A stretch of DNA of 64,000 bases, from the NCBI GenBank assembly GCA_023920165.1, contig CP089278.1, positions 620,001 to 684,000 of the forward strand. Reading direction: 5' to 3'. Made by a program: the position numbers and the translations under genes. The notes under the pieces are model-generated. The model was given only the letters and a program-made list of their open reading frames with translations. It made no database searches and had not been told where the DNA came from. Source of the DNA: Curvularia clavata. Taxonomy: Eukaryota. Below are positions 4,988 to 37,276 of the stretch, piece by piece; position 1 is the first letter of the stretch; each line of letters starts with the position of its first letter.

Positions 4988-6323
4988 CTAGTTGACTAGT
5001 ACTTCTACTATGTTATCCCAAAACCCTAAATCGTATACGTTTTCGACTGCAGCCAGGTTCCATACACGCTCAAAGCTATCTTCTTTAGCTACGGATTGAA
5101 TGCGGCTGGGAAGCGATTTCGGTGGTTGTCCGGATTCAGTTCGAATAAGGATGTGTCTGCTCTCCAGGGGCCAGGTAGTGGGTGGCTCCTCATCTTCTGA
5201 TGGGCTTCCGGGGAAAGTTGAAGTAGGCCCAGTTGATGAAAATGGGTGTACTGAACCACCTTGCTGCATTGTTTCCTCGCGTCTTTGACCAAGGAACACG
5301 ACGCCTTCCGCCATGTCGTCACGCCAATCTGCCCATTTTGAGCTCTCGTTCGTTGTCATACCAGCCCAGATGAGATATATGTGATATGTGAGTAAGCCTA
5401 GAGGAAGCGGCCAGGTTAAGAGTGCGAGTAAACCAACTCCAGAACCGCGAATACCACCTGTGTCCAGGTATATGCTCGTATACACGAGGAAGTAATGCAA
5501 CTTCCGGTCAAAGTACCCACTCCAGGTCTTGGGGTCAACACCAATTTTAGGCCTGTATTTGTAAAAGCTCTCATACTTCGAGTACTGCTTTAGAACCATG
5601 GGTGATAGTGCATAGTAGGCTAGGTACGCCCCATATGCGAGTAGAATGCTTGTGGACAATAGAAGAGCCAAGAACCACTTGTAGTTACCCCGCCCGAGGC
5701 AGTTGTTCACCCATATACAATGGTGGTCCATTCTCGAGACGCAGGTTTTGCATATACTGCAATGCTTGCTCCGCGCAGGCTTCAAAAACTTGCATGTCCG
5801 ACACGCAGTCCCGGGGTAGTATAGCACCCTGTCATACGGATAGTGTCGCATCTGCTCGGCATGATTGGCTGCATTGATATATGTTTGGTCGTTTCTCTTT
5901 GCGCTCAAGTACAGAAAAACGTATGGTTGTGGCAGCAGGATGAAGACCAGGAGCTTGTGGTACAGCCGAAGGACATGCCACACAGCAGGCAGAAACATGA
6001 TTGCGCAAGCCGTCACAAGTCCGAGAAAGAAGATGATAACAAGCGGGTGCTTGTCATTCATGAGGTAGTAGCCCAGGCGGGAGCCATCGTTGGTGATGCG
6101 GCCATTGGTGAGAGCAATGTCGAGCCTTCGAAATGTCGAGGGGATGTGAATGAGAAGGAGGCGGTTGAGGAAGCCGATGGGTGTGTTCCTAGTCTTGTTA
6201 GAGCAAGTGAGTTGAGCGAATGAACAGAAGGTACCTCAATGCCGGTAGTCGTCCGAAGAAGGCTATAAACGTCACTAGGGATACTGTGACAGTGAAAATG
6301 ATTATGGTGCGAGCGATAGTCAT
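4988..6323 (-). CDS. SWF1: DHHC palmitoyltransferase Swf1
   Basis: Exon 1 MTIARTIII...FFGRLPALR, intron 6234-6189, then RNTPIG. DHHC cysteine-rich domain CRTCKFLKPARSKHCSICKTCVSRMDHHCIWVNNCLG; TTNE motif; C-terminal NVYDLGFWDN. Confidence 0.92.
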
Positions 6324-20154: not shown

Positions 20155-21881
20155 ATGCCGGTAAGTCATGTTTACATTCAGCCGCATACAAAACCATTAA
20201 ACCCCCATGAAAAATACCTTTGTCAAAACGCATCTTCCCTCCCCTGCAGCACTGTTCATACTTCTCCTCTACTCAGTCATGGTTCCAAACGTCCAGCGCA
20301 CTGACGCTGAGCCGCTTGTTGGCGCCGAATCACCCCCTTCTGTCACTTACCGCTATTATTCCTGTGACCCTGAATCCCTCTCCTCCCCGAAACAAAGTTT
20401 GCCTAAACAGGGCAAATTCAACGTCCTTTCCACACTCAAAGGGCTACATAATCACAAGGAGCCCGAAATATACGCAGACTTGCCCATATCTGAGAATCCT
20501 TGTCCTCTATGCTTTTTTGAACACTGTCACAAATCGCTAAAATCCTGGCTTCGACAATAGAAACACGCATACTCGGCCGTAACGGTCCAGATTGATCGGC
20601 TGACAAGCGAGCAATACGAAGAAAATGTAAGATTCACCGTACGACCACAATTTCCGTGCTAAGTATTCCAGGATGTTGGTGGAATCGTCGACCTTATTGA
20701 AGTCATCCGTATCCAAGCATCTGGGCCGACCGAAGCAGCTCGCGCTCTTCGCAAGAAGCTGTAAGTCAACAGTCACCTGATCGGTAGTACGTTCTAAACT
20801 TGTCACAGAAAATATGGAAATGCACATCGCCAGATACGTGCCCTTGTCATCCTGGATGCATTGATCCAGAATGCCGGCTCAAGATTCCAGAAGACTTTTG
20901 CCGATGAGCCACTCTTGGAGCGACTTCGTATTCTGGCCAGAGACGATACAGTAGATGTTGATGTGAGACAGAAAGCCAATGTTCTATTCCGCGGATGGGC
21001 AGTAGAATATAAAGGAAAGCCTGGTCTCGAAAGGATCGCTGCACTTCACAAGGAACTGCCGCGCACCAAACGTCCACAACCACAGCAATCCCGCATAGTG
21101 CGACAGCAAGACGCTGAAGCGGCCCGTGAGCGTGAGGAGCACTCACCATCCCCTCCCAGGAACAGCAGGCCCGAGCCACCTCATACATCTTCTTCAAGAA
21201 TGAGTACTCCTGTTGTGCCCGGCCCTGGTGCCCCCTTTCCAAGCTCTTCACTGTTTAAGAGGGATAAGAAGGACAAGAAGACGAAGCGACAGCCTTTTAA
21301 TCTCGAAAAAGAGAAGGGACAGATGCTTGAAACTATCGCGTCAGCCAACGTCGCTAGCACAAACCTACTGAACGGGCTGCAACTTATCAATTGCGAGCAG
21401 CAGCGGGTCAGTGAGAATCCGGAAGTCATGCGTCGGTTCGAGACGTGTAAGCAACTCCGCCGCCAGATTCTGCGCTACATTCATCTAGTTGAATCGGAAC
21501 AATATATCGGTGGTCTGCTCAACGCCAATGACGAGCTAGTCAAGGGGCTTATGGCATTCGAGATTATGGACAAGAGCATCGACGACGACAGCGACAGCGA
21601 CAACGAGGAGGGTAATGTCTCCGCGGCCATGTCCAGCATGGATATGAACGAGGCTCCGCCGCCGAAGCCACCGCGACCTACGAGCATCCCTATGCCTGCG
21701 CCCATGGCTAGCAAGCAGCGTGTCGAATCGGACAGTGAGCCAGAGGAAGATGAGAATGATCCATTCGGCGACAGCAATGGTAAGCTTACAGCGACTCAGG
21801 ACTCCAGACAAAGGCTAATTTTCTGAAGCTATCAAGACTCCTTTTGCAGAGAAAGGCCAACCAACGTGGAGGGATGTGTAG
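20155..21881 (+). CDS. LSB5: VHS/GAT-domain endocytic protein Lsb5
   Basis: MP|KHAYSAVTVQIDRLTSEQYEEN|DVGGIVDLIEVIRIQASGPTEAARALRKKL|KYGNAHRQIRAL..LDALIQNAG (VHS). GAT region CKQLRRQILRYI..LLNANDELV; DPFGD. Introns ~20161-20560, 20627-20671, 20761-20808, 21780-21828. The 6-nt first exon is tentative. Confidence 0.85.
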
Positions 21882-22433
21882 TGAGGTTGGCAATGCAATG
21901 TGCAGGTCATGTTTGTGTCGAGGCACGGCGTTAGGCTCTCAATTATACATGTTTTACGATACCCTTTCCTATGGGTTCATCGATTAGATAAATGCGACAA
22001 GGCACAATATATTTGGAAACCTCCACTTCATGTTTTCATCTCCTGTTTGGACGCGTTGCCTCCGCCACGTTCACAGCCACAGGCGACGTCATGCGGCGCT
22101 AGCGTCGGCGTGTCATTGGCCTGGCGCCTTGCGCAGTGGCATTGAAGCAGGGCGCTGGAAACCGTTGGACATCCGTCTTAATCTCCCTCTGCTCCCCCTC
22201 AGAGACGACTGTACATACCGCAAACTACCATTCCCTATTTCGTCACCGACACAGTAAGTCCCCTGGCTGCACTATGGCGCATACAAAAGGCGAACAAGCA
22301 TACTGACAACGTCATAGCGCAACGTTCATCATCGAACTTCGGTATCCCTAGGCGCATTCACCTTCAGCTCTCCGCCACCCGTACAATCATCGCATACGCT
22401 TAACAAAGTCGCGAACCGCCCACCTCCATTACA

Positions 22434-22562
22434 ATGCCTGCCTCGACCACTTCCTCCATCTCGTCCGCCGCCGGATCCATCGTCAAGCCCCAGGGCGGCA
22501 AGTGCAGCTGCATCAGCACCGACGACTGCAGTTGCTGCTGCATCCCCTGCACCGTCATGTAA
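22434..22562 (+). CDS. 42-aa Cys-rich peptide with C-terminal CaaX (CTVM); candidate prenylated, a-factor-like precursor
   Basis: ACAATGCC start context. MPASTTSSISSAAGSIVKPQGGKCSCISTDDCSCCCIPCTVM*. Nearly all codons end in C/G. Canonical upstream intron signals at 22254-22317 (GTAAGT..CTGAC..TAG). Confidence 0.75.
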   Translation: MPASTTSSISSAAGSIVKPQGGKCSCISTDDCSCCCIPCTVM

Positions 22563-25036
22563 ACAAAACGTATGTCGCATACCGTCAGATTTTCTGTTTC
22601 AAAGCCGCGCACAAGGGACGACTGGCAGGACGAAAGAGCACACTGTCTTCAACATGAGGTGTTTAGGGGTTTGGGTTTGAGTGAAGATACACATCATAGC
22701 GATTCCGTGGTTTTCAGGAGTTTAGAATGCAGGGTTAGTGTCTATGGCATGCCTTGTTGGAGTTTATAGTAATGTGATGTTGATGTATTGATTATATCTG
22801 CGCCTCTTGTTGGTAGTGAGATCACCACCCGTATGGTTTGTGCATCCGTGCTGTCCTGATAATTGATCATACTTTGCGTCGGGCTCGAATTCAGGTCATG
22901 CAAGAAAGTTCTGATCACATACCCGATGCGCAGTAATATACACAACTTCGATGGGTTATGATCACGGGTTAGCACAGTCGGAGCAGCACACACTTCAGCC
23001 CAGCTCGACATTGATACAGTCTTTTATCCCGACAAAGACGCTTTCAAAAATGCCATGTAGTGAGCTTTTCACCTGGCGTCCTAGAATTACTTTGAGCGCC
23101 TCTCAACCCAGCATTGTGGCTTCCAGGGTGTCTGCTTTGTTGTGTTAGCAGCATGAGCTTCTCAGTCACTGATATCCCTTCCCTGCGCTGAGAGCTCCTC
23201 AAATCAACGCTCGCTTCCCATCTACAGCTTGAAATACGAGGACCCGAGTTCGTTACGAGAGTACAAGATATAGGAAATATATATGAGTAGTACGATAAGA
23301 GTGTATTTTAGAAGCATCAGGTGGATGATTCTACTGGATTATTGCTGTTCTTGAATGCGCGGTCTAGCTGGATAGTCTGAGGCTCGATGTGATTCATGGA
23401 ATGCTGCTTTGGTGGCCTTGTCATATAAATAGTTTTACAGACATTTTATGTAGTACAGTAGCGACTTTCTCAACATATCGCCTTGTATGCTGTGTCCTGA
23501 TCTCCTTTGCGATATTTCTCCACGCCATCTGGTCTGATAGTTATTGTTCTACTAAAGGCAATGACCGGTTATAGAGCGTAGGCTATGATAAAATGTACTC
23601 CATAGAGTGTATTTTATGCAGCACAGCTATCCAAGCCCTCGTAAATAGAACATGCTGCTGAACCTGTTTCAGAAACAGTCATGCATTCTGTGAGTGTGGT
23701 TAAATATTGGTTGCATGTGTTGGACCAGGTCCAAGGCGACTCCATGAGTTACGAATTGTGGATCAGCCAGGTAGTCTATGAGATGAGGCGGAGACACCAG
23801 CCTTGCCACTTGTATAAATTTCGCGCTGAAGTCTAATCTGATACTGTGATCCTCCCCTGCATGTCCTTAGTACACAACCCCTCTGCTCAATCCTTGAGCT
23901 TGAGAACGCTAGACGTTATCTGGGAGGAAGAAAGTCCTTGTGATATTTGGGATTGATAGACAGCGGGAACAAGGTACGGGTGATTCATGGAGTGAATGCA
24001 AGAAGTGGAGTTTCTAGGATCATGACGAAAAGAGGGTGGAAATCTTTTTAAAAAAAACGAAAATAACAGAGACTATTTCAAGCTCTCTGCACTTCATCCC
24101 AGCAAATCACCAATAACACACCAAACCCATCCTCTCAACACATGTAGCCAAGATCCCACATGGGAAACCCAAGCCAACCAATGGAATTCCCCGCTCAATC
24201 TCATTGACTATGTGGCCCCCTCACGCCATACACCGCGTCTCTAATCTCCGAAGCCTACCAAAAATAAAGTCGGCAATACAGCGCAAAGGACCATCTTCTT
24301 TCGTAAAGACATACCATTTCTCCATAAGGTAAACGCTCTTGCAGCAGTCCTAGCACGGGCGCGTACCGAAACAGCGGAAAAGCAACGTGACAAGCGCATC
24401 AGGCCATGGCTGCAGATGACCAAGAGATTTAGGGCGAGTGAACAGGAAAGGTTGGATGGGGCTATTTCCGGGGGTTTTACCCATATGGCGTTTGTGGGGC
24501 AGTCGTTACACCCGGCCGTTGTGCTGAAAGATACTGACGCAGAGAAAAGAGGAGATTTTTGCGTACGTAAGTTATGGTATTATATCGATTTTTTTTTAAT
24601 GAGAATCTATGGTATATGCCAGATTTGGGGATGCAAACTAAAGTGGTGGTATACTCTATCTCTCTCCCCTGGGCTGGCAGACTTGGAACTGAAATAATAA
24701 ATGTGGTGTGGTATCATAGAAGACATGCTGTAAGAAGAGAAATATAAAAATGAGCAGTATAACGTCAGTATGCAAAGTTTCACTCCCATGAATAACGTCG
24801 CGCTTCGTTCTCCAGATGGTATCGTTACGATCGTGTCCTCAGAGATATCGCCGTGGTTGAGATTGCTCTTCAAGCCTCATCAGCAAGCCATTTTGGTAAT
24901 GCTCGGGTCTTGAGACATCGCCATGGTACTGTAGGCTTCTCCGTGTCTGCACCGGGTGTATCGTCGTCTCCCGAGTCGACGTGCCCTGCGGCGCTCTTGA
25001 TTCTTTTGAGTGAGCCTAGGTATTGGCTCAAGCTCT

Positions 25037-25564
25037 TCATTTGCTGACACTGGTAATAACCGTGGTAGTTTGCGGTGTCTTGATAGAGAGAGGCAGACCC
25101 TTTTCGATGTCGCGCATCTTGTTGGCGTTCTTTCCTGGGGGTGGAGAGTCAAGACGGATACCGGTGCGCCTGTTTGAACGGTTTTGCTTGTTGTCGACAG
25201 TTGAGCGGCCGGTAAAGCGACGAGAAGCGCGGCGAATAGAGGCTCGAACGTCCCACTGACGCTTCTTTGCGAGCCACCAGAGCACTCCGGATGCGACTAA
25301 ATGCTTGTTAGCTTCAGTATATCTGAGTGGCGAGGTAATGGACGTACTGGAACCGAGTACAACGACAACGGCTACGACAATGATGGCAGCAATAGCACCA
25401 CCCGACAGAGAGAAAGCACCCTTTTGCGCTCCCGCAGCCCCAGCATCACTAGGATCTTGTGGGTTGTCGCTGCCTCCATTATAGCCTGGAGGAGGGAGAG
25501 AACTACCAGAATCCTGCGCAAGGGCTAGGATAGGTAAAAAGAACAAGAGGAGAGACCCGCTCAT
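25037..25564 (-). CDS. Small single-pass membrane protein with signal peptide
   Basis: Signal MSGSLLLFFLPILALAQ; TM GGAIAAIIVVAVVVVLGS|IASGVLWWL; basic stop-transfer AKKRQW. 51-nt intron 25347-25297. Confidence 0.8.
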   Translation of the reverse strand: MSGSLLLFFLPILALAQDSGSSLPPPGYNGGSDNPQDPSDAGAAGAQKGAFSLSGGAIAAIIVVAVVVVLGSSTSITSPLRYTEANKHLVASGVLWWLAKKRQWDVRASIRRASRRFTGRSTVDNKQNRSNRRTGIRLDSPPPGKNANKMRDIEKGLPLSIKTPQTTTVITSVSK

Positions 25565-27101
25565 GATGTCGATGGGAATGTCGAAATGCGGCACAAAACG
25601 GAGAATTGATTGAGTTTTGGTGACACCAGGATGGCGTGAAGGACGTTCGATCAACTGGATAGATACCAACAACTCGCTACCAGCACGGAGGGCAGGTCCC
25701 TATATTTGCATGGCCGCGTGCGCATCTCTTTTACCCAAACCAATCCCTTCTCCATCGCTCATCCAATACCCCGCCAGTCTCAGGGCGTCCCGGCGGTTAG
25801 CATCGTGCGCTTGGACGGTAGACAAGGTTGGCTATCGGGAGGGTCCATCAGGCCATCTTCTTAATATAGCGGCATTGGCGTCGAGTTTGGACAGCTTGGA
25901 AGCCGTAAGCTGCGCGGATTGGCAGGGCGTAATGGGTCGTGGGCGCGTAACGTGGTGGATGGAGGTGACGGTGCAGCGAAGCTAGGGCAAACTCGTGTGT
26001 GATTGGCCAGAACCCTGGCCTCAACCGCCCGGCTAGCAATGTCGCCGCCCTCTCTTGTTTCAGGGATGCCAGCCAGCAGCAACTCTCCATTCTCAACGAT
26101 AGGGCCAAAGTGTGACGACGGTCCTCGAGTGCAGTCGGTGAAGCCGTAGCATGGGAAAGGTATTTTTGCCCTATGTCCTGACTTGAGTCGCCCTCAGCTT
26201 GCCATGATCGTAGGACGCGCCATTACTTGGACAATGCTGTGGAGACGACTCATGCAAATATCCGAACGTCTTGTGGTTTGCTATAGACAAGGTTACTATC
26301 CGCCCTGCTAAGAGCCGCTGATTGACAACGAGAAGTCCATAGTCGACGAGGCCATGGTGCACAGGTATTTTCGGTCACCCGCTATTCGCGCCCTAGAGCG
26401 ACGATCTTTTCAATGACAACAGAGGAAAATGAAAAGTAGACATTTCGGGGTCGTCCAGACAAACGCAACCTGATGGGTGGCTGGAGTATTAGGGTCTTTG
26501 CGTTGATTGGTGGCCCGAATCAAAGGTTGTCTGAGGTCACGTGCCTTCCATCCAACCTACCTCAAACCTAACACTGGAGATAACAAAGGCAGAAAAGGCA
26601 TTTCAGTTAAAACAAATCTTGGAGATCAGTTTCGCAAAGCCCGGAGCTATATGGCGCTTGGATTCGCATTGATTAGGTCTTGAATCTACTTGTATACGGT
26701 TGTGTTCTCTGGAATGGTGTTGAGATAATACATGAAATACGTTCTTCAGCCGACTGTAGGCTTGAACTTGTGTGAATGAGAGACATTAATATCAAATGAG
26801 ACTGGCAAGGAATCTATGGTAGAGGAGTTGGATATAGGTAGATTACTAGCGAAGGTAGGGTGTTGGTCGAAGAGGTCCTTGAGGGTGATCGTGACTTCCT
26901 CGCATCCCTCGCGGAAAGCGCAAAAAGAATAGCAAATCTGTAAGCTTCCACACCTCTTGACTCTGTCACTCAACCTCTACCCCATATATAGGGCCTCGTC
27001 CTTTGCGTCTCGAGATCTTTGTTGCCAGGATACCCTCACTAGCCGCCGCACCCACTCGTCTCTTACTTGCATGACGCCTGGTGTTCGCCCGTTTCATAAA
27101 C

Positions 27102-30100
27102 ATGACCGACCAAGCTACCAGCGAGAAACCGCCTGCAAAGGAGAGGAAGCCTTCGCGTCTTCGTTACGAGATTCGACTGGACTCAACAAATGACGATAGA
27201 GACAGCCAGGGGAATGTCGTCCAAGCGCCTCACAGTGATACGATTGTGTTTGACACGCAGCTTGACATCAGCGGACATGCCACTGAACACATGGAACGCA
27301 AAGACCCTGAACCAGAATTTACTGAGCCGCCCTTGAGTCCAAAGTCTCGAGTCACTCTGGAACGCTTTGCAGCAACTAAGAAGACCACCATACCTGAAAC
27401 TGATACGATCCTATTCAAGACTTTCAGCAAAGAGCTTGTCGAACCAGGTAGCAAATTAGCTTTGCTTTCGCAAACTTTCTCTTATGGACGAGCTATACGA
27501 ACAACCAACCCGACAAATACAAAGATAGGACCTGTTGAGCCTCAGCCTACAGCCCATACTGCTTCGCCATCGTCAACAAACGAAGAGATGAGCAATCGAA
27601 AAGCACATGGTAGGGCAAACACAATTGTTTTATACATTGACTAAAGATTGAACAGAGAGCATTGCGCCTGGCGCAACGGCAAACCGTGAATCGCAGGAAA
27701 CCCCAGCCGACACACGAGATGGACTGAACATCACAAGCGACGGAGATCTGACTTCCTCAATGCCGCTACCACAGACTCTCACTACTGACGACCATTTGAA
27801 GCAGCCTATTCATCCTAGGTAAGAATTCCTGGCATACAATAAAGTATTTTACTAACGACGATAGCTTCACACACTCCAAGAACACAACTCCCTTTCCGCT
27901 TCCGGCACAAACTTCTTTCAAAGGCAAAAGCGAGAAAAAGAAGAGTGACATTTCTTGAAAGCACAGGAAGAATACGAAAACTCTGCCAACCCAACGGAAT
28001 GCCGGGCCATGGCCCCCCCCCGATGGAATGATGCTCTTGACGATGCCCAAACCCTCACCGACGTCAGCGGGACCTTACTTAGCGATTCCATTGATGTCTT
28101 TCATCCTATAAAACCTGAGAAACGTGATGATCAGCCCAAAGATCTTGCTAGGAATGATACGATGTTGTCAGTGGGTAGTCATGACTCTAGCAAACCCGCG
28201 AGAGGCTATCAAGTTCACAAACTCGGCAGCCAGAAAAACATCAAAGCAGAGCATGAGGCAGACGCATACAGCACAGCGGAAGAAACCCCACGGAAAATAT
28301 CTACGGATTTCCTACATACCTTAGGACTGCCATTGGCCACCACGTCTTCCTTGCCACCTGCGCCTGTTGTCACTAAACAGGGTTCCGCTACCAACTTGGC
28401 TCAACAAACATTGCAAGAAGGTCAAGATGGGACCAGTAAATATCATCACGAGAGGACCGCATCCAGTCAAAAAACCCGGAGTCCATCTCTCGAGTCTCAT
28501 AATGACACTTTGCCATGTTCTGGTAGATCTGGACACAACCTGCATAAATCTCAGCCCTTATCGTGCATGGATGAAACAACACAACCGCTTAATACTGTAG
28601 AACCGGTCACGTCTCAAGAGGCACTGCATCGAACTTCTAATCGAGGAGCCCCAAGCCGCATAGTCAAGCCGCGAATGAAGTCGCGCACGGAAAGCAAGCC
28701 TACATCACATGGAGCTCAAGAAGCATCCATACCACCTGTTGTAGGCCGCGCGCTGAAGAGCCTGGAAACGGCGTTCTTGGCGGAGAGCTTTCGAAAGACC
28801 CATGAGCATACCACCGAATTGGAGCATGCTGCGGAGAAAGTAACTCTACATCTCCAGACAATCGATTCCCAGAAAGAGGTCATTGCAGACTTAAGGAAGC
28901 AGCGAGATGAACTGAAAGTCGCCTTCGAAAGCCTCACCAGAAAAGCCAAGACCAATCAAAAGTTCCTTGAGGGATTCCAAAAAGACTACGAAAAACTGAA
29001 GAAGTTGACCACAACTGCTCAAGAAGACAACAGAAAGACCTTGGAAGCAAAAATAGCTGAAATTGAAGAGGAAAAGCATATTCTCGGACGCGAACTTGAG
29101 ATCACCGCCTGCAAACTTGCCGAGAGCCAGAGAAAAATTAGGGCAGTGGCTGACGAGCTCTATGTGAAGTTGGCGATAACCCTTTCAGCGAATGAAAGTT
29201 TGACCAAGCGACGGGATGAGCTGGAAGAAGCGTACAAAAGCGAGAAGAAAAAGTGCGAAGATGCTGAAAGTGAACTGTTGAATGGAATTCAGAATCTTCA
29301 ATTCCAGCTCAGCAACACTACCAATGCTCTTGTCAACAAACTAGATCAGTTCCAAACTTCAGTGGAGAAAACCGCTATATGCGATCACCAAGACACCAAG
29401 ATTAAAGATTGCCTTGAGATACTGAACAGCTTGAAAACAGAACCTCGCTTGAAGGTTCATGATGTTCGCAAGGCAGAGGGGATGTTGTGCTTTATGCGAA
29501 CACGGTACGTGATGATTCAGAGCAGAACGCAACAAAGTACTAACAGATCAAACAGCATTGAATCGGGCCTAGAAGAACTTCACAAAGCAATCACACGTAA
29601 TGGTCCTCATAATGCGGAGGATCATGCATCAATCAACGAACAGCTACAAGATTTGCGTACCAACATGATGAAGTACGAAGAGCTTGCTACAGAGAACTGC
29701 AAGATAAAAGAGTCAAATACAGCTCTCACGAAGCAATTGGAAGCTCAAAGGCAGCAATATGCTCACCTCAATGAGAAGGTAGAGCATCTGAAAAAGGTCG
29801 AGATCGATCTGAAGCACCGATCTAGCAAACTAGAGCACGATTTGGGTAGCATGAGAAATGCAGCCCAATCTTCTAGATTAGAGATGTCGGCAATTGAGCA
29901 GACGAACCGTGAACTAACCCAAAGGTTTAAAGAAGTGGAAAGCGAGTTGGTGGCAGCCAAGGCGAAGGCTAACGATGCAGAGGAATCACGAAAAAATCTG
30001 GAAAAGCAAGCAGCCGAGTACAAGGTAACGCCGATGGTTCTCGGATGGAAGCACTATTTTGACAAACTATAGAAGCGTTATGAGACTATGGCGAAAGAGA

Positions 30101-32092
30101 AAATGGTCGAGGTGAGAAAATCACGTCCATGATATCAACACGTCTGATCTATTCCATAGATGCAAAATGCTGCGACAGCCCGCGAGAAACTTTCCGGAGA
30201 GTTCGAGCTTAAGTTGAGCGAAAAACAGCAGGAATTGCAAAGCGAAATCAATCGACTCAGGGCTGCCCTCCAGGCAGAAGAAGCAGCACACCAAAAGTCG
30301 AACAAAGACCTACGCATAGCGAACGCACATATCGAAGAGCTTAGGAAGAATGCCAATGGCCAAGAAGCTGCAAACAACAAATTGAAAGCCCAGATATCTC
30401 AGCAGCAGTCTCTTATGAAAGTCATGAGCCAGGAGGCAGATGAGAGAGCCTCTCGAAAGCAACAAGAGGCTCGGAGCATCGCTGAGTTGGCTCGAGATAA
30501 GGTCTCATTACTAGAGAACGAAACGCAGACCCTCCTCTCTGAGCTTTCTAAAGCTCGTGAGAACGAACACAGGATGAAACGAGTTGAGGAGGCTTTATCT
30601 GCAGAGAAAGACCGGCTGCATCAAGAAGTTCGGGACATGCATTCGGCAATCGACACAAAGGACATGGAGATAGCCCAAATACGCACCGAATTTGTCAATG
30701 AGCACCAAAAGGCCATAGAGCAATATCGCAATGACGTTGAAGAGTGCAAGCGTCGCTTAGCTGAGACAACCACTTCATTAAAAGAAGCTGAAGCGAATAC
30801 CAAGCTATTGGAAGACCACTATCAAGCCAAAATCTCAGCGGACCAACAACTTGCTGAGTCCAAGTTGCTCGAACTCGAAACAGAATACCACAATGTACTT
30901 CAGTTGGTGAAAGAACAGAGCAGTCCGCTCGAATGGCACGGCCCTCATAACAAAGCTTCGAACCCGTGCTTATCACATACCGGCCAGAAGCTTTCTTCAA
31001 CCAAAGGGCAAAAGAGGGTGGAGCGGGATAATCGATCGATCATTGAAACTTCCCAAGAGCAAGATCACAGGCGGGAGCTTTCGATTCTCTCACATACTGA
31101 AGGTTCGCAGGCCCAGTCCGAGGACCAGGATTTGTTTGCGCTCTTTATTGGTGATATCGACAGTTCCATACAAGGTCAAGCAAATGGCGACTTGACGGCC
31201 AATCATGGATGTAACTCGATTCCCACAAGTCAGAATCTAGGGGCCTCACCGTTCGCGCAAGCTTCTTTGAAGGAGAGGCTAGTAAGAACTGCAACAATAG
31301 AACCCCAACGTCAAATTCGGAGCTCTTCTGGATTTAGTAGCATGGCATCAGATGAGCTGGCGCGTATTCAGAAAGAACTGGAGCCTGACATGACATCCAG
31401 GCTTCACAGCCGAAATGCAGGCTCCCAAAGGCTTGAGAAACCTTTCGATGACAACAAGCCAGAATTTTCTCATACGGATAACGCCTCCGTGATGAGTTCC
31501 CAATCATACCAATCACAGGAAAGGCCCAAGTCGCAAGCTAATACATCATCTCGGATGTTTCCCCCTCATGGAAGTGCCCCTAAACAAAACCAATCACCAT
31601 CTCAGTCTCAGGTCATTCAAACCAAGCTTCCTAGTAAGCACGAAAAGCTTGATAGTATGATTCATAATCTTGGTCATAGCGTCTCTTCAGGCAAACGGAA
31701 GCTTTCCATTACTCAGACCGACAGTGATTTGGTCCTGAAAAGGCAGCATGGAACGCCGTCTACGCAACCTGCATTTTCTTCCTCTGGCCCTCGGAGGCGA
31801 TCCCCACGTTTGTCCAGAGCATCTGGTGACAGCTCAGGAAGTCAATCCGGCAGGTCCAACTACACTTCTTCGGATAAGGCGCATCTCTCCCGTCACCAAC
31901 TTTTACAGACATACGCCACACCCCCCAAGCGCCACTCTTCTCGGGTTAAACGTAATCAGAGTGAGTACATACTATAATGACAGACACCGCTCGCGCGATA
32001 TATACTAACTCTAGAGCATAGGCAGAAACGGCACCGCGTCTGAAGATGAGTTCAACGACCGGTTCGACGAGGAGCTAGCAGGATTGCATTAA
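27102..32092 (+). CDS. Large multi-exon coiled-coil protein (~1,500 aa); 5' exon structure unresolved
   Basis: ORFs 27081-27644, 27955-30072 and 30160-31977, linked by introns 27610-27655, 27819-27864, 29505-29555, 30024-30071, ~30112-30159, ~31961-32021. Heptad-rich E/K/L/Q core ~28750-30910. Ends EDEFNDRFDEELAGLH*. Confidence 0.72.
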
Positions 32093-35537: not shown

Positions 35538-37276
35538 ATGGCGCGCTTCACTCAAATTGCTGCTGTCTTGGCGGCTGCGACACTTAGCCATGCTCGTGCG
35601 CCCTTCGTCGTGGAGCGTCAGGTCCCTGCTGACCCAACTGGTGTCACGACGATCAAGTCTGCACAGGGTGCTGAGATTCGGTACAAGCAACCTGGTAAGG
35701 CTGGTGTTTGCGAGACTACTGAGGGTGTCGACGACTATGCCGGCTACATCAGTCTCAACCCTACGACCAATATGTTCTTTTGGTTCTTCGAAGCGCGTGA
35801 AAACCCGACTGAGAAGCCATTGGTGAGCAAGAACCATGTCTCCATCGCTGAACATGTGGTCGATCCTAACTAAGTTGTTAGACTCTTTGGTTGAACGGTG
35901 GGCCAGGAAGTGACTCTCTCATTGGTCTTTTCCAAGAACACGGTCCATGCAATGTCACTGAGGAATTGAAGACTCAGTTGAACCCTTACTCATGGAACGA
36001 GCGCAGCAACATGCTCTACCTCTCGCAACCTGTTGGTGTCGGCTTTTCGTATGAGACTACAGAGACGGACAGCGACGGCCGATACTCACTCGTTGATCCG
36101 GACACAACAAACACCACTGATGCTGCAGCCATTGGTGCGTGGCACATTCTCCAGGCCTTCCTGGATCTTAGCCCACAGCTCGACCCAGACATCACCAACT
36201 TCACATTCAATCTGTGGACTGAGAGGTAAGCTATTCAACAAAAATCTCAATCAGCACCAAGTTAAAACGTATCTAGCTACGGAGGTCATTACGGCCCGGC
36301 TTTCTACAACTACTTCTACAAGCAGAATGAGCTGATCAAAAACGGCTCTGCCCCTGGTGTAGAAGTCCAGATGGATACTCTTGGCATAATCAACGGAATC
36401 GTCGATGAGCAGATCCAGGCTCCGTACTACCCAGAGTTTGCTGTCAACAACACCTATGGCATCAAAGCGGTCAACGACACAGTCTACACCTTCATGAAGA
36501 ACGCTTATTATATGCCTGAAGGTTGCCATGACCAGATTGAGTACTGCAAGCAGTCCGATCGAACCACTGAGGACGGCTATTTGACCTGCTCATCCGCCAC
36601 CAACCTTTGCCGATCGCTGGTGGAGGAGCCATACTATGCGTTTGGAGGCCGAGGTGTATACGACATCCGTCACCCATACGATGACCCCACCCCACCTGAC
36701 TACTTCCAAGACTTCTTGAACCTCGCATCCACTCAGGAAGCCCTTGGTGTCAATATCAACTACACTAGCACTAACGCTCGCAACGTCTCGCGCGGATTTC
36801 AGCAAACGGGTGACTTCGTCTTCCCCAACTTCATTGGAGACCTTGAGGAGATTCTCTCATACGGTGTCCGTGTTGCTCTCCTGTACGGGGACGCCGACTA
36901 CATCTGCAACTGGTTCGGCGGTGAAGCCGTCTCCCTGGCCGTCAACTTCACTGACGCCGAAGCTTTCCGCGCTGCTGGCTACACACCCTTCCTCGTCGAT
37001 GGTGTCGAGTACGGTGAGGTGCGTGAATACGGCAACTTCTCCTTCACCAGGATCTACGAGGCCGGCCACGAGGTTCCTTACTACCAGCCTGTAGCCAGTC
37101 TGGAGCACTTCAAACGTGTGTTGGATCATGTTATCATCGCCGATGGCAGCAAGGTCGTTACCGATGACTATGGCACGAACGGTACAGCTAAGGCGACTCA
37201 TACTGAACCGTATGTCCCACTACCGCCTACAAGCACCCCAAGTGCTGCAAGCAGGGTCAAGAGAGCATATATGTAA
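35538..37276 (+). CDS. Secreted serine carboxypeptidase (peptidase S10, carboxypeptidase S1-like)
   Basis: Signal peptide MARFTQIAAVLAAATLSHA; FFWFFEAR, WLNGGPGSDS, SQPVGVGFSY. Catalytic TESYGGHY is split by intron 36226-36276; GDADYICN; AGHEVP. Confidence 0.93.

Follow-up and report, generated by a model that had tools for sequence, protein, structure and literature searches.

A transcribed two-exon micro-gene for a 42-residue CaaX peptide of the Leotiomycete 'putative a-factor' type

The 64,000-nt stretch of DNA that was analysed, referred to below as the window, carries at 22434-22562 of the plus strand (stop codon included, translation checked) the coding sequence of a 42-aa precursor, MPASTTSSISSAAGSIVKPQGGKCSCISTDDCSCCCIPCTVM*. 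The locus is a two-exon micro-gene that is transcribed independently, and it is almost certainly a real gene belonging to the family of small CaaX peptides that was described in Leotiomycetes as 'putative a-factor'. The gene is new; its family is known, with a function that is still debated, and it is not a new kind of gene.

The first-pass annotation had proposed at this place a 129-nt ORF for a 42-residue CaaX peptide, with a strong start context (ACAATG), a preference for codons ending in C or G and a canonical 64-nt intron upstream at 22254-22317, and each of these features was recovered. The start codon stands in the context ACAATGC, and a purine was present at position -3 in 18 of the 18 sequences examined, the window among them. 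The GC3 value of the ORF was 0.905, as compared with 0.63 for the exon of the neighbouring VHS/GAT gene and 0.61 for the neighbouring mitochondrial-carrier ORF. The peptide begins with MPAST, and Ser or Thr occupies eight of the 15 N-terminal positions. It contains SSAAGSIVKPQ, followed by GKCSC....CSCCCIPCTVM; the Cys cluster from C24 to C36 (CSCISTDDCSCCC) is encoded at 22503-22541 (plus strand), with the CCCIP block that is common to the Leotiomycete family, and the CaaX box C39-T-V-M at 22548-22559 (plus strand). A loosely defined CaaX end was found in two of the 597 ATG-initiated ORFs of 20-100 aa in the 64-kb window. Such an end, arising by chance at this rate, is weak when taken alone, so the case for the gene is carried by expression, splicing and conservation, all three of which were found.

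The RNA evidence consists of Logan contigs from four runs (X1, X9, X11 and X19) among the 24 public runs listed; for X9 the recorded source is a root metatranscriptome. The contigs of all four runs skipped exactly 22254-22317, that is, the 64-nt intron of the 5'UTR (GTAAGT...CTGAC...AG, plus strand), and the GT..AG polarity places the RNA on the plus strand. Exon 1 (22194-22253, plus strand) is 5'UTR, with the 5' end of the transcript at about 22194-22219 (the contigs start at 22194 in X9, 22209 in X19, 22210 in X1 and 22219 in X11). On the outer side of 22210 the X1 contig consists of Illumina adapter, which marks the end of a molecule. Exon 2 (22318-23136, plus strand) was delimited by the RNA contigs and holds the remaining 5'UTR, the coding sequence and some 545-575 nt of 3'UTR; the deep contigs of X1 and X19 end at 23107 and 23136, respectively, and low-depth contigs at 22732 and 22794. 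Once the intron is removed, the 176-nt leader is free of ATG triplets, and the first one encountered is the start codon of the ORF. With a strict regular expression, a canonical intron of 50-64 nt was found at the equivalent place of the 5'UTR in 13 of 18 sequences.

The contig depth of the micro-gene and of its neighbour was 1060 vs 189.6 in X1, 485.6 vs 41.7 in X19 and 7.3 vs 4.3 in X9, values which do not permit an expression ranking. The mfa-1 gene of Neurospora has a long, functionally important 3'UTR, and high transcript abundance has been reported for it. Between X1, X19 and the window there were no differences in 22210-22648 and 10-12 in 22649-23051 (Fisher p about 0.002-0.003); the sources of these two runs seem to be closely related to the window organism. 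No RNA contig covered 22022-22193, reached past 23136 or joined the LSB5-like upstream gene to the micro-gene, which is not in itself evidence for separate transcripts; that the micro-gene has its own promoter is suggested by the adapter-marked end at 22210 together with the conserved promoter blocks.

These blocks lie in a conserved island at 22051-22190 (plus strand), which was aligned by blastn with 76-79% identity in six of the related loci (L013-L018). In most of the 15 sequences compared the following could be aligned: GCCACGTTCAC (22064-22074); GACGTCAT (22085-22092), a putative bZIP/CRE-like site; TGTCATTGGCC (22111-22121), with CCAAT on the minus strand; GCATTGAAGCAGGG (22139-22152); and the TATA-like CTTAATCTCCC (22177-22187). 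GCATTGAAGCAGGG contains TTCAATG (minus strand), presumably an HMG/Sox-type core, and the heptamer TGAAGCA, one mismatch away from the Ste12 element TGAAACA. The AACAAAG motif at 22402-22408 (plus strand), offered earlier as an HMG-box site, does stand 25 nt ahead of the start codon; it is, however, part of the transcribed sequence of exon 2, and most of the aligned relatives lack it. Being part of the 5'UTR and unconserved, it was rejected as a regulatory site, and the argument built on it fails. Mating-type or stress control should be sought in the blocks of 22051-22190 and not in this motif.

The word-indexed homologue search among proteins of 23-74 aa gave no match. When 1.84 billion representative proteins were searched with phmmer, just three matches, of the Pleosporales type, were obtained at E <= 0.001, and no known a-factor was retrieved at this threshold. 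The three are gene models of 106, 164 and 208 aa, of each of which this peptide forms the final 39 residues; their upstream parts are unrelated, and the similarity begins exactly at Met1. The homologue search among longer proteins returned the same three only, out of 255 candidates. One of them, the 'hypothetical protein' OSS47219.1 of Epicoccum nigrum (Didymellaceae, Pleosporales, Dothideomycetes), is the nearest named homologue. The models of OSS47219.1 and of the two others have been extended upstream by read-through of the 5'UTR, so that the true 39-aa product is hidden in 'hypothetical proteins'. The suspicion that annotation overlooks this gene was well founded: it is either absent from the annotation or over-extended to a 'hypothetical protein' of 106-208 aa.

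Conservation of the ORF and of its CaaX end, on which the first-pass annotation had made the gene depend, was evident, since besides these three database proteins 26 metagenome loci carry the peptide. The loci were obtained by scanning metagenome contigs with alignment A2, and the ORF was present in every one; it was intact, with conserved start and stop, in 24, the remaining two being cut by the contig end. The peptides of the relatives are 39-42 aa long. In the alignment of four proteins and in 15 distinct peptide sequences C24, C26, C32, C34 and C35 were invariant, and C36 was replaced by Ile in some relatives; CTVM was invariant in all complete relatives. Among the 26 loci and the window there were 17 distinct coding sequences, and for the 15 distinct complete ones the mean pS was 0.43 and the mean pN 0.085. 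The mean pN/pS was 0.17-0.20 in the coding frame only: in a six-frame control over the last 29 codons, frame +1 gave 0.17 and zero stops, whereas the other five frames gave 0.45-2.9, with stops. In blastn comparisons the coding sequence (22430-22564) appeared as an isolated island of 79-87% identity between UTRs that no longer align. The ORF is under purifying selection of the coding type.

These data bear on the explanation that the transcript is non-coding or regulatory and that the ORF arose in it by chance. With 129 nt the ORF does occupy only a small part of the roughly 860 nt that are transcribed, and a CaaX end does arise by chance at the frequency counted above. However, the purifying selection is specific for the coding frame, start and stop are kept in all complete relatives, and the conservation is confined to the coding sequence, the UTRs having diverged. 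The first ATG is used, in a good context, and Rfam gave zero matches across 21900-23400. A chance frame is extremely improbable, and this reading is close to refuted.

The upstream neighbour of the micro-gene is an LSB5-like gene with VHS and GAT domains at 20444-21882 (plus strand; Pfam VHS 5.4e-12, GAT 9e-5; the start is approximate and was taken from the extent of the blastn match), the last intron of which, 49 nt at 21779-21827, is spliced out in the X1 and X19 contigs. Blastn placed this gene upstream, with order and strand preserved, in 19 of the 26 loci, the other seven having too little upstream sequence; synteny with LSB5, as had been suggested, thus holds in every locus with sufficient flank. 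On the downstream side no synteny was detected between the window and the loci by tblastn or tblastx. In two relatives a gene with a HET (heterokaryon incompatibility) domain follows the micropeptide gene (L001 3947-4750 and L025 4264-5067, Pfam), and in the others there are ORFs of 535-624 aa without known identity, or nothing recognisable. In the window about 5 kb downstream (23200-27900) hold nothing recognisable and have no similarity to the loci. Beyond this, the ORFs at 27949-30072 (707 aa) and 30160-31977 (605 aa), both on the plus strand, have no Pfam domain, and when the 707-aa ORF was the query of the word-indexed search, none of the 8000 scored candidates matched it at E <= 1e-20. 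At 36266-37276 (plus strand), about 14 kb downstream of the micro-gene, an S10 serine carboxypeptidase is encoded (Pfam 3.5e-40); Kex1-type enzymes of the S10 family take part in alpha-factor processing.

As to the family, Wilson et al. (2023, PLoS One; PMC10569646) screened annotated Leotiomycete proteomes for proteins of at most 100 aa with a CaaX end and singled out BCIN_13g03330 of B. cinerea as a putative a-factor, with homologues in at least 111 Leotiomycete species. According to that study these homologues are 45-64 aa long and mostly unannotated ORFs, with a Ser/Thr-rich N-terminus and CTVM as the commonest ending; the pattern of the peptides in its supplement S10 is ...SAA.S.ISSIVKP...GK.KC..C....CCCIP(IP)CTVM, and a Gly-Tyr motif near the C-terminus occurs in 87 members and is not universal. 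By its account, all a-factor genes known from filamentous ascomycetes until this candidate were those of Sordariomycetes.

The peptide of the window was compared by eye with these published sequences. SAA, SIVKP, GK-C, CCCIP and CTVM stand in the same order in both, and some of the Leotiomycete members end in CCCIPCTVM, which are the last nine residues of the window peptide. Three features of the family were found, namely a very small ORF with CTVM, the K-C..C....CCCIP(IP)C block, and ..SAA..S[IV]VKP with a Ser/Thr-rich N-terminus. The best match of the Atlas feature search (0.87), an Ascomycota cluster with 91 members and a length of 56 aa, serves as a lead only. There are differences as well. 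The window peptide and its relatives, at 39-42 aa, are slightly shorter than the published range; they start with MPAST, whereas MCTS prevails in the published peptides; the LVNRNGPGS stretch is absent, and the second IP is usually missing. CSC.STDDCSCC replaces C[ILF]ECDG[YVF].CC, so that CxC stands against CxxC, and STDD takes the place of the Gly-Tyr motif, both in the window and in each of the 26 loci. That the motif reported for 87 Leotiomycete members is absent here speaks against the pheromone reading.

The view that the six extra Cys are unusual and the peptide undescribed had to be abandoned. The Cys cluster is a hallmark of the Leotiomycete family and, together with SIVKP, part of the signature already published for it in at least 111 species (PMC10569646), and for this reason the six extra Cys are no oddity. 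The window is tentatively assigned to Dothideomycetes because of the Epicoccum nigrum homologue, and the candidate family would seem, from the likeness of the sequences, to extend to this second class. Our literature search found no report of the family, or of any a-type pheromone gene, in Dothideomycetes; in PMC13037118 the 2023 study is named in the reference list only, with no further description of the family.

By analogy with the established CaaX pathway, lipidation of C39 is probable. Cys39 would be farnesylated, Met at the X position directing farnesyltransferase; TVM would then be removed by proteases of the Ste24/Rce1 type, and the new C-terminus would be methyl-esterified by an enzyme of the Ste14 type. 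The further reading, that the peptide is an a-type pheromone, is a serious possibility that we hold with reserve. It supposes that the Ser/Thr-rich N-terminal portion, as far as the conserved [IV]VKPQ.GK, would be a pro-region which is cut off, and that a Ste6-type transporter would carry the lipidated Cys-rich C-terminal peptide out of the cell, where it would serve as ligand of a Ste3-type receptor.

The proven a-factors, as given in supplement S2 of PMC10569646, were compared with the window peptide by eye. A short precursor with an N-terminal extension and a C-terminal CaaX is common to both, as are the Ser/Thr-rich stretch behind the N-terminus and a gene that is frequently missed by annotation. 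MPAST of the window corresponds to MPST in Neurospora, Podospora, Chaetomium and Gibberella and to MQPS or MQPT in yeasts; KPQ corresponds to KVPQ in Neurospora; and CTVM is also the ending of the G. zeae a-factor, CTVM or CVVM being found among the proven a-factors. In these sequences MPAST...VKPQ of the Pleosporales is closer to the proven a-factors than is the N-terminus of the Leotiomycete peptides. The proposal of an a-factor-like precursor stands as regards the layout (Ser/Thr-rich N-terminus, MPAST start, CTVM CaaX) and falls as regards novelty, the family having been published in 2023. Another a-factor-like pheromone has recently come from a class of Pezizomycotina outside Sordariomycetes, PpgB of A. 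fumigatus (Krappmann et al. 2025, Curr Biol 35:2414, as cited in PMC11787670 and PMC13712828).

Several points of the same comparison go against the pheromone. Among the a-factors compared (the relatives of S. cerevisiae MFA1/2, N. crassa mfa-1, S. macrospora ppg2 and G. zeae, as listed in PMC10569646), none carries extra Cys beside the Cys of the CaaX. The mature parts of proven a-factors diverge strongly between genera, whereas the Cys-rich C-terminus, judged by eye, is nearly fixed across two classes. For some proven a-factors receptor activation, secretion and mating-type control have been shown, and in the sources consulted for no member of the Cys-rich family. According to PMC10569646, the Leotiomycete family is well expressed, its expression is independent of mating type in three Leotiomycetes, and its authors hold that several lines of evidence 'strongly suggest' that it is not a classical mating pheromone; both the independence of mating type and these doubts argue against the pheromone.

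It is also possible, with somewhat less weight, that the product is a micropeptide without a role in mating, held at the cytosolic face of a membrane by a farnesyl on C39 and a palmitate on an adjacent Cys, and/or binding Cu/Zn or sensing redox through its CxC...CxCC(C) thiols, in a housekeeping or stress function. A Cys that directly precedes a CaaX box is a classical site of palmitoylation, as in Ras2, Ste18 and Ykt6, and this modification would keep the peptide in membranes, which is a further point against an exported pheromone. The five to six extra Cys directly before the CaaX, most of them invariant as described above with Cys or Ile at position 36, are in keeping with such an anchor; Ras2, Ste18 and Ykt6 share the Cys immediately before the CaaX Cys, but they are folded proteins with a lipid tail and not peptides of 42 residues. 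Fungal copper metallothioneins share the thiol cluster of CxC type and a very small, highly expressed product, and are not known to carry a CaaX; in its very high GC3 and its tiny ORF the micro-gene resembles their genes. An ORF with a DHHC palmitoyltransferase domain is present at 4988-6235 (minus strand, Pfam 4.3e-31), about 16 kb from the gene of the poly-Cys peptide, whose tail looks like a palmitoylation substrate, and this proximity is probably a coincidence.

The expression data can be read in the same direction. The transcript in the root metatranscriptome X9 suggests expression in vegetative growth, and to the mating-type-independent expression of the Leotiomycete family is added its peak in B. 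cinerea, which the expression data of PMC10569646 place in sclerotia. The high conservation of the C-terminus from Pleosporales to Leotiomycetes, as far as the published peptides reach, would also suit a non-mating function. Against such a function stand the results of the motif searches: Pfam returned no family at E <= 1 for the peptide, metallothioneins and Cys-rich membrane modules included, and no metal-responsive element was recognised when the conserved promoter blocks were inspected by eye for known motifs. The number and spacing of the free Cys vary, too, the published Leotiomycete peptides having CxxC where the window has CxC, and some relatives CCI instead of CCC, and the conserved N-terminal MPAST and [IV]VKPQ look like the pro-region of a processed a-factor. 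The wider proposal that the whole family, from Leotiomycetes to Dothideomycetes, is an ancient farnesyl-anchored and probably palmitoylated poly-Cys micropeptide, metallothionein-like or redox-sensing, which has been mis-assigned as a-factor, is rather unlikely; if it were true, the Ste3 ligand of both classes would still have to be found.

A short precursor with a leader-like conserved N-terminal part and a conserved Cys/Pro-rich core, seen also in the published members, could in principle give rise to some other product, such as a regulatory micropeptide that acts inside the cell or a natural product that is made on the ribosome, rich in Cys and Pro, and modified, the CaaX-like end being incidental. 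The invariance of CTVM, a canonical farnesylation signal, in all complete relatives is difficult to reconcile with an incidental end, and no tailoring enzyme adjoins the gene: a VHS/GAT trafficking gene lies upstream, and the downstream neighbour varies between relatives. We consider this origin very unlikely.

The results show the Leotiomycete candidate family in fungi of the Pleosporales type, where it is expressed, under purifying selection and nearer in its N-terminus to the proven a-factors. They are also a reminder that annotation may miss such a gene or over-extend it as a 'hypothetical protein'. A signal of species recognition would hardly be expected to be conserved across classes and to carry a poly-Cys lipidation or metal motif, and the peptide could alternatively reveal a new kind of lipidated micropeptide. 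If the a-type pheromone reading is true, the a-type pheromone so far missing from Dothideomycetes would have been found, and there would be a concrete peptide for the Ste3-type receptors of this class, which contains many plant-associated fungi.
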